Shown here: one piece after another, positions 1 to 7,561 of the stretch
How the letters are laid out: each line of letters begins with the position of its first letter
Numbering within the stretch: the first letter of the stretch is position 1
NCBI RefSeq assembly: GCF_003018235.1
Contig: NZ_CP027437.1
Origin: Escherichia coli
GTDB taxonomy: Bacteria > Pseudomonadota > Gammaproteobacteria > Enterobacterales > Enterobacteriaceae
Length of the DNA: 64,000 nt
Direction: 5' to 3' (one strand)
The notes under the pieces: generated by a model
Told to the model about the DNA's origin: nothing
Seen by the model: the letters and a program-made list of their open reading frames with translations, nothing else
The model's database searches: none
Translations under genes and position numbers: made by a program

Positions 1-199
1 AACTGACAACAAGGGGAAAACGCACGACGTGCTGACCGGAAGTGATGACGGTCGCCACAGCAACACGTCTCTGGCGTGGGGAGCTGGCGTGCAGTTTAAC
101 CCGACCGAATCCGTGGCCATTGATATTGCTTATGAAGGCTCCGGCAGTGGCGACTGGCGCACTGACGGTTTCATCGTGGGTGTCGGTTATAAATTCTGA
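1..199 (+). CDS. lom: Outer membrane protein Lom (Ail/Lom family), 3' end only
   Basis: Frame ending ...VGVGYKF then TGA at 197-199, a typical Ail/Lom C-terminal beta strand; located immediately upstream of stf as in lambda. Confidence 0.7.
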   Translation, partial: TDNKGKTHDVLTGSDDGRHSNTSLAWGAGVQFNPTESVAIDIAYEGSGSGDWRTDGFIVGVGYKF

Positions 200-225
200 T
201 TAGCCAGGTAACACAGTGTTATGAC

Positions 226-252
226 AGCCCGCCGGTTCAGGCGGGCTTTTTT
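226..252 (+). terminator. Rho-independent terminator after lom
   Basis: Stem AGCCCGCC / GGCGGGCT with a 6-nt loop, followed by a T-tract (247-252). Confidence 0.7.
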
Positions 253-263
253 GTGGGGTGAAT

Positions 264-3200
264 ATGGCAGTAAAGATTTCAGGTGTACTGAAAGACGGCA
301 CAGGAAAACCGGTACAGAACTGCACAATCCAGCTGAAAGCAAAACGTAACAGCACCACGGTGGTGGTGAACACGCTGGCCTCAGAAAATCCGGATGAAGC
401 CGGGCGTTACAGTATGGACGTTGAGTATGGTCAGTACAGCGTTATTCTGTTGGTGGAGGGATTCCCGCCGTCACATGCCGGGACTATCACCGTGTATGAA
501 GATTCTCAACCCGGTACGCTGAATGATTTTCTCGGTGCCATGACGGAGGATGATGCCCGTCCGGAGGCACTGCGCCGTTTTGAAGTGATGGTGGAAGAGG
601 TGGCGCGTAACGCGTCCGCAGTGGCACAGAACACGGCAGCCGCGAAGAAGTCAGCCGGCGATGCCAGCACATCAGCCCGTGAGGCGGCAACCCATGCGAC
701 TGATGCTGCAGACTCAGCACGCGCAGCCAGCACGTCAGCCGGACAGGCCGTGTCGTCGGCTCAGTCAGCGTCTTCCAGCGCAGGAACTGCATCAGCAAAG
801 GCCACTGAAGCATCAAAAAGTGCTGCCGCTGCAGAGTCCTCAAAAAGCGCGGCGGCCACCAGTGCCGGTGCGGCAAAAACGTCAGAAACGAATGCTTCAG
901 CGTCACAACAATCAGCAGCCACTTCTGCATCCACCGCGACCACGAAAGCGTCAGAAGCTGCCACCTCAGCCCGGGATGCGGCGGCCTCAAAAGAGGCAGC
1001 GAAATCATCAGAAACGAACGCATCCTCGAGCGCCAGTAGTTCCGCTTCCTCGGCAACGGCGGCAGGAAATTCCGCGAAGGCGGCAAAAACGTCCGAGACG
1101 AACGCCAGGTCTTCTGAGACGGCAGCGGGACAGAGCGCCTCAGCTGCGGCAGGCTCAAAAACAGCGGCTGCATCATCTGCCAGTGCCGCGTCAACAAGTG
1201 CCGGGCAGGCCTCAGCCAGTGCCACTGCCGCCGGAAAATTGGCAGAAAGCGCTGCATTGTCCGCTTCAACAGCCACAACGAAGGCTGGCGAAGCCGCTGA
1301 ACAGGCCAGCGCAGCAGCGAGGTCTGCATCCGCAGCGAAGACATCCGAAACGAACGCGAAAGCGTCGGAAACCAGTGCAGAATCCTCAAAAACGGCAGCT
1401 GCATCGTCCGCCAGTTCGGCGGCGTCATCGGCATCATCTGCGTCTGCTTCAAAAGATGAGGCGACCAGACAGGCATCAGCAGCGAAAGGCAGCGCCACGA
1501 CGGCATCCACGAAGGCGACAGAGGCTGCTGGCAGTGCGACGGCGGCAGCACAGAGCAAGAATACGGCAGAATCCGCAGCAACGCGCGCCGAGACAGCAGC
1601 TAAACGGGCAGAGGATATTGCATCCGCCGTGGCGCTTGAGGATGCAAGTACGACGAAAAAGGGGATAGTACAGCTCAGCAGTGCGACCAACAGTTCGTCT
1701 GAAACGCTGGCGGCAACGCCAAAGGCAGTAAAATCAGCCTATGACAATGCAGAGAAACGTCTGCAGAAAGACCAGAACGGCGCTGATATACCCGATAAGG
1801 GACGCTTCCTGAACAACATTAACGCGGTCAGTAAAACAGACTTTGCTGATAAGCGTGGTATGCGTTATGTGCGGGTTAACGCTCCTGCAGGTGCAATATC
1901 TGGAAAATATTACCCTGTTGTTGTTATGCGTTCTGCTGGCTCAGTAAGCGAACTGGCATCAAGGGTCATTATCACCACGGCAACGCGAACCGCAGGCGAT
2001 CCGATGAATAACTGCGAGTTTAACGGATTTGTTATGCCTGGTGGCTGGACTGACAGGGGGCGTTATGCTTATGGAATGTTCTGGCAATATCAAAACAATG
2101 AACGAGCCATCCACTCAATAATGATGAGTAATAAGGGCGATGATTTGCGCTCTGTGTTCTATGTTGATGGCGCTGCTTTCCCTGTTTTTGCGTTTATCGA
2201 AGATGGCCTGTCAATATCCGCACCTGGTGCTGATCTCGTTGTTAATGATACGACCTATAAGTTTGGGGCAACAAATCCGGCGACTGAATGTATCGCGGCG
2301 GACGTTATCCTTGATTTTAAGAGTGGGCGTGGTTTTTATGAGTCTCATTCGTTAATTGTTAACGATAACTTGTCGTGCAAAAAACTTTTTGCCACAGACG
2401 AAATTGTAGCGCGTGGTGGTAATCAGATTCGAATGATAGGTGGGGAGTATGGTGCATTATGGCGTAATGATGGCGCTAAAACTTACCTGCTGCTTACCAA
2501 TCGAGGTGATGTTTATGGTGGCTGGAATACATTAAGACCGTTTGCTATTGATAACGCAACCGGCGAACTGGTTATTGGAACCAAACTGTCCGCAAGTCTG
2601 AACGGTAATGCATTAACAGCAACAAAGCTGCAAACGCCAAGACTGGTTTCTGGTGTTGAGTTTGATGGTTCCAAAGATATTACTTTAACCGCCGCGCATG
2701 TGGCTGCTTTTGCCAGAAGGGCAACGGATACATATGCCGATGCGGATGGTGGCGTTCCCTGGAATGCCGAATCAGGCGCTTACAATGTCACCCGCTCTGG
2801 CGACAGCTATATTCTGGTTAACTTCTATACCGGAGTCGGAAGTTGCCGGACCCTGCAGATGAAGGCGCATTACAGAAATGGTGGTCTGTTCTACCGTTCT
2901 TCAAGAGATGGCTATGGTTTTGAGGAAGACTGGGCAGAAGTTTATACCTCGAAAAATCTTCCACCAGAAAGCTACCCAGTCGGCGCACCAATCCCGTGGC
3001 CATCAGATACCGTTCCGTCTGGTTATGCCCTGATGCAGGGGCAGACTTTTGACAAATCTGCCTACCCGAAACTTGCAGCCGCTTATCCGTCAGGCGTGAT
3101 CCCTGATATGCGTGGCTGGACGATTAAGGGCAAGCCCGCCAGTGGTCGTGCCGTATTGTCTCAGGAACAGGATGGCATTAAATCGCATACCCACAGCGCC

Positions 3201-3677
3201 AGCGCATCCAGTACGGATTTGGGGACGAAAACCACATCGTCGTTTGATTACGGCACTAAATCCACGAATAACACCGGGGCGCATACGCACAGTCTGAGTG
3301 GCTCTACGGGGTCTGCCGGTGCTCATACTCATGGTAATGGTATTCGTTGGCCAGGAGGCGGCGGTTCTGCGTTAGCATTTTATGATGGCGGTGGGTTCAC
3401 TTATGTCCAGGATTCACAGTATCAAGTAAGCCCGGGGACTTCTTCCAGTAGATCGTATTATCAACGTATTCAGACACAGTCAGCAGGTGCTCATACCCAC
3501 TCGCTGTCTGGTACTGCAGCAAATGCTGGCGCACATGCACATACTGTAGGTATTGGTGCGCATACGCACTCGGTTGCGATTGGGTCACATGGACACACCA
3601 TCACCGTTAACGCTGCTGGTAACGCGGAAAACACCGTCAAAAACATCGCATTTAACTATATTGTGAGGCTCGCATAA
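264..3677 (+). CDS. stf: Side tail fibre protein, lambda Stf-like mosaic (about 1137 aa from the ATG at 264)
   Basis: N-terminus [26 protein letters not shown]... and C-terminus ...[31 protein letters not shown] match my recollection of lambda Stf; a long Ala/Ser/Thr-rich low-complexity segment and a central block resembling Rac StfR. The ORF track starts at GTG 258; ATG 264 is preferred. Confidence 0.9.
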
Positions 3678-4252
3678 TGGCATTCAGAATGAGTGAACAA
3701 GCACGGACCATAAAAATTTATAACCTGCTGGCCGGAACTAATGAATTTATTGGTGAAGGTGACGCATATATTCCTCCTCATACAGGTCTGCCTGCAAACA
3801 GTACCGATATTGCACCGCCAGATATTCCGGCTGGCTTTGTGGCTGTTTTCAACAGTGATGAGGCATCGTGGCATCTCGTTGAAGACCATCGGGGAAAAAC
3901 GGTCTATGACGTGGCTTCCGGCGACGCGTTATTTATTTCTGAACTCGGCTCATTACCGGAAAATGTCACCTGGTTATCCCCGGAAGGGGAGTTTCAGAAG
4001 TGGAACGGTACAGCCTGGGTGAAGGATACGGAAGCAGAAAAACTGTTCCGGATCCGGGAGGCGGAAGAAACAAAAAACAGCCTGATGCAGGTAGCCAGTG
4101 AGCATATAGCGCCGCTTCAGGATGCTGTGGATCTGGAGATCGCAACGGAGGAAGAAACCTTGTTGCTGGAAGCCTGGAAAAAGTATCGGGTGTTGCTGAA
4201 CCGTGTTGATACATCAACTGCACCGGATATTGAATGGCCAGCCCTACCGTAG
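3677..4252 (+). CDS. tfa: Tail fibre assembly protein Tfa
   Basis: 191 aa, [24 protein letters not shown]..., lambda Tfa-like; the start overlaps the stf stop (TAATG). Confidence 0.9.
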
Positions 4253-4349
4253 GGTAAGATATATAAATTCTATAATTAGAAGTATCTTTCCATTTAAGGC
4301 TAGGAAGGGGGGCTTGGAAAACGTAAGGAATCTCACACCGAGATTATTT

Positions 4350-4940
4350 TTATATATCAGGTGTCTGATTTTTTGCTTTAGCTCTTAAAATGGTTTGCCG
4401 CGAGGTTTTGAATTCTTGGGCAATGTCACTTATATTTATACCTGACTTAATTTGCTCTAGTACCCTCTGTATTTGTTCATCATTTAACACAGGTGGGCGA
4501 CCAAATCGCTTTCCTGCGCCCCGTGCTCTTAATATCCCTGAATGAGTACGCTCAAGTAAAAGGTCTCGCTCAAATTCAGCGACTGCTGAAATTACTTGCA
4601 TCATCATTTTTCCAGGTGGACTGGTCAGGTCAACGCCCCCCAATGCTAAGCAATGCACTTTGATACCTGCTTTGGTCAGTTGTTCCACCGTTTTACTGAT
4701 ATCCATTGGATTACAACCGAGGCGATCCAGTTTTGTGACAATCAATGCATCACCTCTTTTCAGTCGATCAAGCAACTGGTTAAAACCAGGACGCTCACTG
4801 GTTGCTGCTGAGCCGCTAATTTGTTCTTCAATTATTTGCTGAGATTTGATGTTAAAACCTGCACTTTCGATTTCCCGACGTTGATTTTTGGTTGTCTGTT
4901 CCAGAGTTGATACCCGACAGTAAGCATAAATTCGAGACAT
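4350..4940 (-). CDS. pin: Serine recombinase, Pin-type DNA invertase
   Basis: 196 aa, [15 protein letters not shown]... with a resolvase/invertase N-terminal catalytic domain and C-terminal HTH; same size and context as K-12 pinQ/pinR. Confidence 0.9.
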
Positions 4941-5258
4941 AGTGAGATCTTCTATACGAAATTGGTGTACATATCATAATGCATCTCAGAAAATAATTTT
5001 GATTATTTTTGTACATATTTGTATGTACACGTTCGAAAATAAACGAATGCGTATGCAACCCCGTAATTTTGGTGAGACCCAAAATCGATTTTGTGAAAAA
5101 TGGCCTTAACTCGGTTTGTTTTTCGAGTTCCGGGGGGACTCAAGGAAGAAGAATAGTGTTGCGTGTTATTTTAACCAGATTTCAAGTTGTTTGGTCGTGA
5201 AAAAGTGGAGCAAAATGTTGTTAAAGTGGAAAAATGATAAAAAAGTAAGTTTATTATA

Positions 5259-5492
5259 TTACATTTTACCATTTAAATTTTTGTTGTCTTTAAGAACTGA
5301 TATCGCTGTTTGTAATAATTCTTTGTTATCCAGCCATGACTTTTTCTTTATGTTTCCTTCAATGTAATCAAGCAATGTTCTGGTATTGATAGGTCTTCCC
5401 TGTTTTGCTACTTCCACTACAGCATCCCCTAGGATAATTCTTACTTCAGGAAGCTGCGCAGGGAACCACTTTAGGGTGTCTTTTGATTTCAT
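5259..5492 (-). CDS. ydfK: Small prophage protein YdfK/YnaE family (cold-shock-induced in K-12)
   Basis: 77-aa product MKSKDTLKWFPAQLPEVRIILGD... from the internal ATG, which has an AAGGA RBS 9 nt upstream; the 88-aa ORF from 5525 is the less likely start. Confidence 0.8.
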   Translation of the reverse strand: MKSKDTLKWFPAQLPEVRIILGDAVVEVAKQGRPINTRTLLDYIEGNIKKKSWLDNKELLQTAISVLKDNKNLNGKM

Positions 5493-6277
5493 GAAGATAT
5501 TCCTTAAAATATTATTGATTTTCATTGCGATATTGTATGTCTGATTCAGGATATGTTGACTTATACATCGGTTTTGTCTGGGTTATTGGATATGCCAATC
5601 CCTAATTTTATTAGAGCATGACTAAAAATGCTGAATATGATAAGGAGCGAAGTGATTATCAGTATGCTGTTCATATAGCCTCGAATTAGTAATGTGTTAT
5701 ATATGATATAGTTGACAATTTTTATCCTGGGTGTTCTTAAAGTTCGTAGATAAACATTGTCGTTTCAGGTATACAGGAATGCTAACAGGTGGCGGCAAAA
5801 ATCAGGCGGTTTATGGCGCAAGCTGAAGTGGCAACTGCAAACTATCTTATGCAGAGACTCTACACGGATTGGGTTTAAAAGTATACATAGATAACAGTTT
5901 TTATCTGAAGAAGAAAAATATCAAGGTGATATAGCCTATATGCCTTTGATGCGGAGGAATGAATGTGATGGGAGTGATGTATCTGAATAGTTGAAAAACC
6001 GCAGACACGCCTTATGCAAGAACGTGCTGCGGTTGGCTGGTAAATTTTTCGATAGTGCGAGTATTGAATGATTTCCAGCCGTTATTGATTTTACGCGTAA
6101 ATCCATGAAAAAACTACTTATCTGTTGGGGAGTTTTTTTGGGGCATATATGGGACAGAAATAGGCCCCAGATAGACACTGAGATCGAACTTAGGATGCTT
6201 TTTAAAAAATGCAACTATCTGAAAAAACCTAGAAAACGCCAAGGAAACCACAGGATGGGAAAAAACACCTGTGAATT

Positions 6278-7561
6278 ATGGATTTCCAGTTATATTCGCT
6301 CGGCGCAGCGTTAGTGTTTCATGAAATATTTTTTCCTGAATCATCAACGGCAATGGCGTTAATTCTGGCAATGGGAACCTACAGTGCAGGTTATGTGGCG
6401 CGTATTGTCGGAGCATTTATTTTCGGCAAAATGGGCGACAGAATCGGGCGTAAAAAAGTGCTCTTTATTACCATCACTATGATGGGGATCTGTACCACCT
6501 TAATTGGTGTGCTGCCGACCTATGCACAAATTGGTGTGTTTGCGCCAATTTTGCTGGTGACGCTGCGTATTATTCAGGGGCTGGGGGCAGGCGCGGAAAT
6601 TTCCGGTGCCGGCACGATGCTGGCGGAATATGCACCAAAAGGTAAGCGCGGAATTATCTCCTCATTTGTGGCTATGGGAACTAACTGCGGAACCTTGAGC
6701 GCAACGGCAATCTGGGCCTTTATGTTCTTCATTCTCAGTAAAGAGGAACTGCTGGCGTGGGGATGGCGTATACCGTTCCTGGCGAGCGTTGTCGTGATGG
6801 TCTTTGCTATCTGGTTGCGTATGAATCTGAAAGAAAGCCCGGTCTTTGAGAAGGTTAACGACAGCAACCAACCGACAGCAAAACCTGCACCTGCTGGTAG
6901 CATGTTCCAGAGCAAATCCTTCTGGCTGGCAACAGGGCTGCGTTTTGGTCAGGCTGGTAACTCCGGTTTAATTCAGACTTTCCTTGCAGGCTATTTAGTA
7001 CAGACGTTATTGTTTAACAAAGCAATTCCAACAGATGCATTGATGATCAGTTCGATTCTCGGCTTTATGACCATTCCGTTCCTTGGTTGGTTATCCGATA
7101 AAATTGGTCGCCGGATCCCGTATATTATTATGAATACCTCCGCGATTGTGCTGGCATGGCCAATGCTTTCTATCATCGTAGATAAAAGCTATGCCCCGAG
7201 CACCATTATGGTGGCACTGATTGTGATTCATAACTGTGCGGTGCTGGGATTATTTGCTCTGGAAAACATTACCATGGCAGAAATGTTCGGCTGTAAAAAC
7301 CGCTTTACCCGGATGGCCATTTCTAAAGAAATTGGTGGTCTTATCGCTTCCGGTTTTGGTCCTATCCTGGCGGGTATTTTCTGCACCATGACGGAGTCCT
7401 GGTATCCGATCGCCATTATGATCATGGCATATTCAGTGATTGGTTTAATCTCTGCGCTGAAAATGCCAGAAGTGAAAGACCGTGATTTAAGTGCGCTGGA
7501 AGACGCTGCGGAAGATCAACCGCGTGTTGTCAGAGCTGCGCAACCTTCCAGAAGTCTTTAA
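6278..7561 (+). pseudogene. ydfJ: MFS metabolite:H+ symporter YdfJ, 5'-truncated at the prophage junction (may still be expressed from the internal ATG)
   Basis: 427-aa ORF beginning MDFQLYSLGAALVFHEIFFP..., which by comparison with KgtP/ProP-type transporters is missing roughly 25-30 N-terminal residues; an in-frame stop lies at 6272-6274. Confidence 0.75.

Follow-up and report, generated by a model that had tools for sequence, protein, structure and literature searches.

An intact StfR-type side tail fibre gene with a putatively exchangeable tip cassette in a lambda-like prophage at the Qin locus of Escherichia coli

Results and Discussion

In the 64-kb window, i.e., the whole stretch of E. 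coli DNA that was analyzed, stf is an intact, ordinary side tail fibre gene of the type of StfR from the Rac prophage, and it is already known. The prophage that carries it is lambda-like and integrated at the Qin/ydfJ locus. With high confidence, the gene was interpreted as encoding a complete StfR-type fibre of this prophage, the receptor specificity of which would reside in an exchangeable cassette of the C-terminal tip. The features of the gene and of its neighbours are listed in Table 1.

Table 1. Features of stf and of the adjoining genes (positions refer to the window).
Feature	Position	Strand	Residues	Remarks
stf, StfR-type side tail fibre gene	264..3677	+	1137 aa	from ATG at 264
N-terminal tail-attachment (collar) domain	264..545	+	1-94	phage_tail_N; PDB 9E7M/9MGH
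Ala/Ser/Thr-rich proximal shaft	561..1652	+	100-463	52 unbroken heptads; consensus xxSAxxA
Conserved junction motif	1653..1733	+	464-490	lambda Stf counterpart aa 359-385
StfR-type distal shaft	1734..2966	+	491-901	absent from lambda Stf; three sub-modules
Sub-module A, all-beta "knob"	1818..2357	+	about 519-698	no solved homologue
T4 gp34-like trimerisation domain	2250..2549	+	663-762	Pfam PF21446 (Gp34_trimer), E 4.8e-27
gp37_C / Mu S'-like domain	2742..2921	+	827-886	Pfam PF12604, 24.9 bits (cut-off 22.5 bits)
T4 gp37-type tip (collar, HxH needle, tip)	2967..3674	+	902-1137	PDB 2XGF, E 1.4e-81
Hypervariable tip cassette	3308..3479	+	1024-1072	172 nt, 49 aa
Direct repeat, left copy	3311..3331	+		21 nt, codes SAGAHTH; family D17
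Direct repeat, right copy	3479..3499	+		21 nt; family D17
tfa, tail fibre assembly chaperone	3677..4252	+	191 aa	Pfam Caudo_TAP, E 1.6e-44
pin-family serine invertase	4350..4940	-		Pfam Resolvase + HTH_7

Reading Frame and Composition

The whole stf ORF extends from 258 to 3677 on the plus strand and begins with GTG. The Shine-Dalgarno-like sequence GGGGTGA lies directly 5' of the ATG, from which the size given in the preliminary description of this DNA was reproduced. The GC-rich Ala/Ser/Thr segment, which had been placed at about codons 115-440, was recovered at aa 113-464 (Ala+Ser+Thr of at least 60% in 30-aa windows), with a G+C content of 0.58-0.63 at nt 450-1650 as compared to 0.44-0.54 elsewhere in the gene.

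In other frames, long ORFs run across this tract (487..1581, minus strand, 364 aa; 661..1668, plus strand, 335 aa; 761..1690, minus strand, 309 aa). Relative to StfR, the tract carries 6, 5 and 38 substitutions at the first, second and third positions of the stf codons, respectively. Relative to lambda, synonymous and non-synonymous codon changes stand at 36:30 in the stf frame and at 6:58 and 12:54 in the other forward frames. On these substitution patterns, the other-frame ORFs were dismissed as real genes and are considered by-products of the GC-rich tract; they had been described as spurious before. Of 80 substitutions relative to StfR, 61 were found at the third codon position, and this strong bias in the stf frame indicates purifying selection.

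Prophage Locus and Occurrence of the Fibre

According to the annotation of a 99.7%-identical genome, the gene order is J-lom-stf-tfa-pin, with ydfK, ynfT and ydfJ as neighbours. The window covers the prophage only in its last 5 kb; there, a lom-type gene ends upstream of stf and tfa is located downstream, as is typical of a lambdoid late operon. The same ydfJ-side locus and the same tfa-pin-ydfK-ynfT neighbourhood are found for StfQ of the K-12 prophage Qin (b1547, 320 aa). StfQ shares the tip frame of Stf (74.5% amino acid identity over aa 876-1137), but it is an N-terminally truncated remnant with a different cassette, which is the commonest type in the sample.

The exact 1137-aa protein is already present in NCBI, and it is identical to WP_072149386.1 at 1135 of 1137 residues. 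The 90%-identity cluster to which it belongs comprises 15,543 members, including proteins of 1120 aa, and none of the NCBIfam models matched it. In public records, the protein is misannotated as "short-chain fatty acid transporter" or "tape measure protein". Since the protein is in NCBI and the architecture is that of the published Ur-lambda Stf and T4 gp37 work, its value as a discovery is small.

Rac and Qin, the K-12 counterparts, are cryptic prophages, and StfQ is truncated. In many relatives in the databases, a deletion has fused the tip to an unrelated prophage gene, and the tip cassette of Stf recurs in prophage remnants, as truncated copies, at other chromosomal loci. Moreover, defective prophages donate stf/tfa DNA to lambda (PMC3945230). 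It could be argued from these observations that stf is a relic of a decaying cryptic prophage, intact by chance and unassembled, and possibly a reservoir of cassettes for incoming phages. This explanation is considered unlikely, because the 3.4-kb frame is open and shows the third-position bias described above, the annotation of the closest genome shows intact tail genes L, K, I and J upstream, and near-identical full-length fibres occur in isolated phages such as ev099, PhiR34_1 and Kati (identity of about 97% across 94-95% of the gene).

Comparison with StfR and Lambda Stf

The intact fibre gene was compared with its known relatives. StfR of K-12 Rac (b1372, NP_415890.2, 1120 aa) aligned in one BLASTP block (1-1137 versus 1-1120) with 94.3% amino acid identity. 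Both fibres have the N-terminal domain, 52 heptads, the distal shaft and seven HxH motifs, and both genes are followed by tfa and pin. DNA identity to Rac was 97.5% over window positions 10-3307, and it decreased to 90.4% in the 198 nt at the 3' end of the gene. Among the 65 alignment columns that differ from StfR, 47 fall into the bins of aa 1001-1100. In this region, the cassette of 49 aa, as compared to 32 aa in StfR, showed no DNA similarity to Rac (window 3308-3479); no DNA similarity of the cassette to Qin or lambda was found either. Judged from these alignments, the 172-nt cassette at 3308-3479 is the only real recombination joint relative to StfR. The two prophages differ in location, with StfR at the Rac locus and the prophage analyzed here at the Qin locus.

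Ur-lambda Stf is an OmpC-binding side tail fibre for which a cryo-EM/cryo-ET model was published in 2025 (PMC12617516). It shares the collar domain, the Ala/Ser heptad repeat, the junction motif and the gp37-like HxH tip with Stf, but has 37 instead of 52 heptads, eight instead of seven HxH motifs and another tip cassette. With 774 aa, it is 363 aa shorter. This difference was resolved into 105 additional residues (15 heptads) in the proximal shaft, a shaft of 411 aa in place of a hinge and distal segment of 143 aa, and a loss of 10 aa in the tip.

The fibre had been described as a lambda-type protein with about 350 extra StfR-like residues inserted centrally. The resemblance of both ends to lambda Stf was measurable (87.6% nucleotide identity over nt 1-908 of the gene; 69% amino acid identity over aa 903-1137). 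However, the N-terminus is of StfR type, since DNA identity to lambda was 87.5% over window positions 72-1171 as compared to 97.5% for Rac. The protein is indeed longer than lambda Stf by StfR-like material, but this material is not one insert. The lambda-type scheme was not supported: the protein comes very close to being identical and collinear with one known Stf, StfR, over its whole length.

A hybrid that arose recently from lambda and Rac, in which a central insert of about 350 StfR residues is flanked by joints in a lambda-Stf-type fibre, would account for ends that resemble lambda Stf around a middle that does not, and lambda x Rac stf recombinants form readily in the laboratory (PMC3945230). 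It is nevertheless highly improbable, as the 5' end is closer to StfR, the residues of the C-terminal needle are identical to those of StfR, and the protein departs from lambda in two separate places, the 15 extra heptads and the replaced distal shaft. In the alignments, no segment closer to lambda than to StfR was found.

N-Terminal Domain and Shaft

The N-terminal region matched Pfam phage_tail_N (PF08400) with an E-value of 8.4e-72 over its full length (1-134). Over aa 1-94, 94 of 94 residues aligned with the lambda Stf N-domain (PDB 9E7M; E 6.9e-52). In lambda, this domain forms a dodecameric collar on the tail (PMC12617516).

The Ala/Ser/Thr tract had been taken as a low-complexity segment. 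Its composition was as described; however, the tract is a strict heptad repeat and probably a coiled-coil shaft of the kind that is also present in lambda Stf. The lag-7 residue autocorrelation was 0.41, as compared to 0.216 ± 0.020 in 2000 shuffles (maximum 0.29), i.e., a deviation of about 10 SD. In 46 of 50 heptads the seventh position is alanine, and the register never shifts. A scan for DNA tandem repeats over stf returned only a trivial 9-nt match of 2.1 copies. Thus, the heptads reflect a periodicity at the protein level and not a recent DNA duplication. The corresponding segment of lambda Stf was described as a coiled coil (PMC12617516), and by analogy the tract probably forms a coiled-coil shaft, with a trimeric state predicted from lambda (PMC12617516). 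The tract is to be read as a probable coiled coil of 52 heptads and not as junk, and the length difference from lambda amounts to whole heptads, exactly 15.

Similarity to lambda Stf stops directly after the junction motif, and none was found between the distal shaft and aa 386-528 of lambda Stf. This part, which lambda lacks, comprises the predicted knob, the gp34-like and the gp37_C-like domains. Match boundaries in 2973 relatives divided the shaft into three units, approximately aa 519-698, 707-815 and 776-905. The knob was predicted to be a beta-sandwich, modelled as a monomer of what probably is a trimeric assembly. T4 gp34 (PDB 4UXE/5NXF) matched aa 706-777. Shaft portions were also matched by Mu fibre protein S, at aa 440-521, which include the junction motif (PDB 5YVQ/8JU3), and at aa 813-908 (PDB 8JU3).

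Receptor-Binding Tip

The tip contains the Pfam Collar domain (PF07484) over aa 907-954 and seven HxH motifs, three before the cassette and four after it. The His-rich motifs GAHTHS, GAHAHT and GSHGHT, reported earlier as retained, are all among the repeats found. T4 gp37 (PDB 2XGF; domains D10/D11) has the collar and the seven HxH motifs in common with this tip, and its C-terminal strand is identical. Lying between conserved HxH repeats, the cassette corresponds in the alignment to the tip subdomain of gp37 (residues 932 to about 960); the insert has 49 aa here and 28 aa in gp37, and the two sequences are unrelated. Outside the tip, the fibre and gp37 are unrelated, and the chaperone is Tfa here as opposed to gp38/gp57A in T4. 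From the conservation of the HxH motifs, iron coordination and an intertwined trimer are predicted.

On the interpretation of Stf as a functional StfR-type fibre, the protein would, like its homologues Ur-lambda Stf and T4 gp37, form a trimer. Its first 94 residues would dock on the tail within the collar, and the 52 heptads of aa 100-463, with their Ala/Ser core, would extend as a coiled coil of about 54 nm. This would be followed by a beta-structured distal shaft (aa 491-901) composed of the knob, the gp34-like and the gp37_C-like domains, and by a collar-needle-tip module (aa 902-1137) that would bind the receptor and be held by seven HxH metal sites. The tip would be folded by Tfa, the putative chaperone from the adjoining gene. 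The fibre may provide a fast and reversible first contact with the cell surface, after which the central fibre gpJ would commit the phage.

Variation of the Tip Cassette

Variability among relatives was confined to aa 1012-1073 approximately, with a column entropy of about 2 bits in the cassette and less than 0.1 across the larger part of the flanking tip. In the same frame, at least 14 cassette types were observed. The type found here is carried by 719 of 5426 complete E. coli genomes; its sequence is rich in glycine and aromatic residues. The cassette is bracketed by the two D17 repeats, the copies of which are 86% identical.

The 49 residues of the cassette, the only part of the fibre that differs from StfR, most likely set receptor specificity. 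In T4, the tip subdomain of gp37 (932-959) contacts LPS and OmpC, and mutations there alter the binding of both (PMC6957217). The tip-subdomain cassette is the natural target for host-range prediction or engineering.

A pin-family serine recombinase, which shares 85% of its amino acids with PinR and PinQ and has retained the YCRVST motif intact, is encoded 98 bp downstream of tfa, and in Mu (G/Gin), P1 (C/Cin) and e14 (P/Pin) a Pin-family invertase likewise lies beside fibre and chaperone genes. Inversion of the fibre tip by the adjacent Pin, as in these systems, with the cassette as one of two alternatives, was dismissed as practically negligible, because the interval between tfa and pin lacks a second tfa' or stf' copy in inverted orientation, no core of the gix/hix type lies nearby, and neither the tip nor tfa is bracketed by an inverted repeat. 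The 97 bp from the tfa stop to the 3' end of pin contain no alternative fibre or chaperone ORFs. The gix/hix core AAACCNNGGTTT was not found in window positions 1-6300 with up to one mismatch; in the entire window, the AAACCNNGGTTT-type core had three matches, all far away, as compared to 2.5 expected by chance. Unlike in Mu G, P1 C and e14 P, crossover sites, an inverted alternative exon and a second tfa are thus absent, which argues for variation by allelic replacement of cassettes and not by inversion.

Experimentally, lambda recombines with the stf/tfa genes of Rac and Qin at about 2e-6 (PMC3945230). The sequences suggest that homologous recombination in the conserved flanks, which code for HxH motifs, exchanges the cassettes of the StfR-type fibre, and the earlier notion that fibre genes of this kind swap specificity modules was supported. 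Tfa shares about 95% identity with TfaR, TfaQ and lambda Tfa, yet each of the four fibres has a tip cassette of its own, and no co-variation of Tfa was seen across these four types. Cassettes may therefore be swappable without a change of chaperone. A plausible, though tentative, extension is that the cassette targets a receptor other than the K-12 OmpC bound by lambda (e.g., a particular allele of OmpC, a different porin or a type of LPS core), and that the cassette types, set in one invariant HxH frame, may constitute a natural plug-in library of specificities served by one near-invariant Tfa and swapped between E. coli prophages at the HxH-coding repeats. If this holds, a single slot of 150 nt could retarget lambda-based delivery particles with the chaperone unchanged.

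Downstream of the cassette, no clear boundary indicating further joints with Rac or Qin was found through tfa and pin, both prophages being about 95% identical and equally distant. Within pin, a patch at positions 4400-4550 was more diverged than its surroundings.

Relation to StfR and Lambda Stf

Previously, the side tail fibre gene stf had been described as a lambda-type fibre with a central insert resembling Rac StfR. The Stf protein (residues 1–1137) aligned with K-12 Rac StfR (residues 1–1120) in a single block with 94.3% identity, and 47 of the 65 differing columns were located in the bins spanning residues 1001–1100. DNA identity to Rac was 97.5% over positions 10–3307 and, from position 3480 on, about 95% to Rac and Qin alike; no similarity to Rac, Qin or lambda was detectable at positions 3308–3479 in the DNA comparison. 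Ur-lambda Stf (774 aa) aligned only at nucleotides 1–908 of the gene (87.6%), in a heptad stretch carrying a 315-nt offset, and at the tip (69% amino acid identity). Since StfR aligned in one block and the lambda matches were partial, stf is an StfR-type fibre from end to end and not a lambda fibre bearing an StfR insert. Thus, the hybrid proposal was not upheld, as the protein was collinear with a single known Stf except for one small cassette. The roughly 350 residues reported in excess of lambda do exist (363 aa in the alignment with Ur-lambda Stf), but they do not form one insert. They are split in three: +105 aa in the heptad shaft (exactly 15 heptads, 52 versus 37 in lambda), a 411-aa distal shaft replacing 143 aa of lambda, and −10 aa in the tip. 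Divergence of the distal shaft from lambda begins directly after a shared 26-letter motif and stops at an 11-letter segment.

Features of the stf region and of the Stf protein (aa, residues of Stf; other positions, nucleotides of the window)
Feature	Position	Strand	Remark
Lom-family gene, 3' end			upstream of stf; ORF and domain search
stf ORF	258..3677	+	1137 aa counted from ATG at 264
tfa	3677..4252		downstream of stf; Caudo_TAP, E 1.6e-44
Pin-type serine invertase	4350..4940	-	downstream of tfa
Other-frame ORF	487..1581	-	overlaps Ala/Ser/Thr tract
Other-frame ORF	661..1668	+	overlaps Ala/Ser/Thr tract
Other-frame ORF	761..1690	-	overlaps Ala/Ser/Thr tract
Gp34_trimer	aa 663–762		Pfam
gp37_C	aa 827–886		Pfam
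Mu fibre protein S match (5YVQ, 8JU3)	aa 440–521, 813–908		PDB sequence search
T4 gp34 match	aa 706–777		PDB sequence search

Gene Call and Heptad Shaft

The fibre ORF of the preliminary description proved real, with the ribosome-binding sequence GGGGTGA 5' of its ATG. Its GC-rich, Ala/Ser/Thr-rich tract was likewise confirmed (G+C of 0.58–0.63; Ala+Ser+Thr of at least 60% across residues 113–464). Substitutions in the tract relative to StfR numbered 6, 5 and 38 at codon positions 1, 2 and 3 of the stf frame, and the synonymous:non-synonymous ratio relative to lambda was 36:30 in the stf frame versus 6:58 and 12:54 in the other two forward frames. These patterns bear out the view that the three other-frame ORFs are by-products.

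The label "low-complexity" did not hold for the tract. Residue autocorrelation showed sharp peaks at lag 7 and its multiples, with 0.41 at lag 7 versus 0.216 ± 0.020 for shuffles (n = 2000; shuffle maximum 0.29). Residues 100–463 form 52 heptads of the consensus xxSAxxA in an unshifted register, with Ala at position 7 in 46, Ala at position 4 in 35 and Ser at position 3 in 36 of the 50 heptads scored. A tandem-repeat scan of the gene found no DNA tandem repeat under this periodicity. At the textbook coiled-coil rise of about 0.1485 nm per residue, the shaft would measure about 54 nm, as compared to about 38 nm in lambda. Positions 561–1652 differ from lambda stf by those 15 heptads with the register kept, which suggests that fibre length changes by whole-heptad steps. 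The paper on the 2025 Ur-lambda structure assigns the matching lambda segment (residues 102–393) to a proximal coiled coil within a fibre that is a trimer; in its model, the N-terminal 91 residues of Stf build a collar of 12 subunits around the tail (PMC12617516).

The stretch from the lom stop codon (about 198) to the start of stf contains a strong terminator-like hairpin (positions 226–247; 8-bp stem with seven G-C pairs, followed by TTTTTGTGGG). Late-operon expression of stf would therefore need read-through or antitermination.

Distal Shaft

The central module spans residues 491–901. An exhaustive search recovered 2973 relatives, whose match boundaries delimited three independently occurring units at about residues 519–698, 707–815 and 776–905. 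The first (positions 1818–2357) was confidently predicted as an all-beta domain (pLDDT 81.7), for which no solved structural homologue was found; it also occurs in fibres of phage JenK1, Vibrio phage phi 3, Aeromonas phage phiAS4 and Escherichia phage navn.

The Tip Cassette

Residues 902–1137 matched the receptor-binding tip of T4 gp37 (2XGF; E 1.4e-81). Seven HxH motifs are present in Stf, T4, StfR and StfQ, and eight in lambda; the His-rich repeats GAHTHS, GAHAHT and GSHGHT noted before are among the seven. The 120 database representatives yielded 74 distinct tips; in their alignment, column entropy was below 0.1 bit over most of the flanking tip and reached about 2 bits only at residues ~1012–1073. 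Clustering of the tips revealed at least 14 unrelated cassette types of 28–49 aa in this slot, and StfR, StfQ, lambda and the window carry four different types. In the HMMER alignment, the slot faces gp37 Y932 to about N960, and the numbering fits the published gp37 mutants Y932, I933, N937, G938, K945, I951 and Y953. Residues of gp37 932–959, the "tip subdomain", touch LPS and OmpC (PMC6957217). Due to this position, the cassette is most likely the specificity determinant, by homology to gp37.

Many database homologues of positions 2886–3674 consist of the conserved tip fused to unrelated prophage proteins, i.e., Lom, terminase, portal, S49 peptidase or capsid (homologues P0009, P0042, P0076, P0103-P0110, P0118 and others). 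These fusions resemble remnants left by deletion, as in K-12 StfQ, and prophage decay would thus repeatedly leave tip plus tfa.

Cassette Spread and Proposed Exchange

The 172-nt divergent DNA is bordered by a 21-nt direct repeat coding for SAGAHTH (3311–3331 and 3479–3499; 86% identical), and both copies lie in near-invariant flanks. Recombination of lambda with Rac and Qin within stf/tfa has been shown to occur at about 2e-6, with Red-beta and RecA making use of imperfect homology (PMC3945230). The simplest reading is that homologous recombination within its conserved flanks may have exchanged the cassette. Tfa shares about 95% identity with TfaR, TfaQ and lambda Tfa though the cassettes differ in all four; thus, the chaperone does not follow the cassette.

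The cassette was carried by 719 of the 5426 complete E. coli genomes but by only two phage records. Truncated fibre remnants at other loci, beside prfC and beside yciE/trpA, contain it as well. In E. coli ETEC1716 (locus L005 from NZ_CP122880.1; positions 6067–7966 of L005), genes for a reverse transcriptase and a SLATT-domain protein lie just 3' of a truncated fibre with the same cassette and tfa; the pair looks like retron-type anti-phage cargo at a prophage end.

Genomic Neighbourhood and Pin

The complete genome most similar to the window (99.7% over 5 kb) is annotated in the order L-K-I-J-lom-stf-tfa-pin, followed by ydfK, ynfT and ydfJ, which is the Qin attachment side of K-12. The intact Pin shares 85% identity with K-12 PinR and PinQ; DNA identity drops to 81–85% around 4400–4550, where pin is more diverged than the flanking DNA. 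An inversion switch like Mu G or e14 P was rejected, since no gix/hix-type core, bracketing inverted repeat or inverted alternative fibre exon was found near Pin. With neither a crossover site nor an invertible segment detectable nearby, Pin is an orphan invertase.

Occurrence and Database Records

The window's first 5 kb had a full or partial match in 5338 of the 5426 complete E. coli genomes, and coverage was 80% or more in 1200 genomes. The gene is ordinary and already catalogued: NCBI lists the identical 1137-aa protein (e.g., EED1924013.1) on 24 contigs, the 90%-identity cluster to which it belongs comprises 15,543 members, and it differs from RefSeq WP_072149386.1 in 2 of 1137 residues. 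Fibres of isolated phages, including ev099, PhiR34_1 and Kati, are about 97% identical across 94–95% of the gene. New are the position of the single putative specificity cassette and a corrected anatomy, in which the tract is a coiled coil instead of low complexity, the fibre is StfR-type and not a hybrid with lambda, and the distal shaft has three parts. Some NCBI records of the exact protein are labelled "short-chain fatty acid transporter", and fragments of the heptad tract are labelled "phage tail tape measure protein"; the Ala/Ser-rich repeat has probably misled the annotation in both cases.
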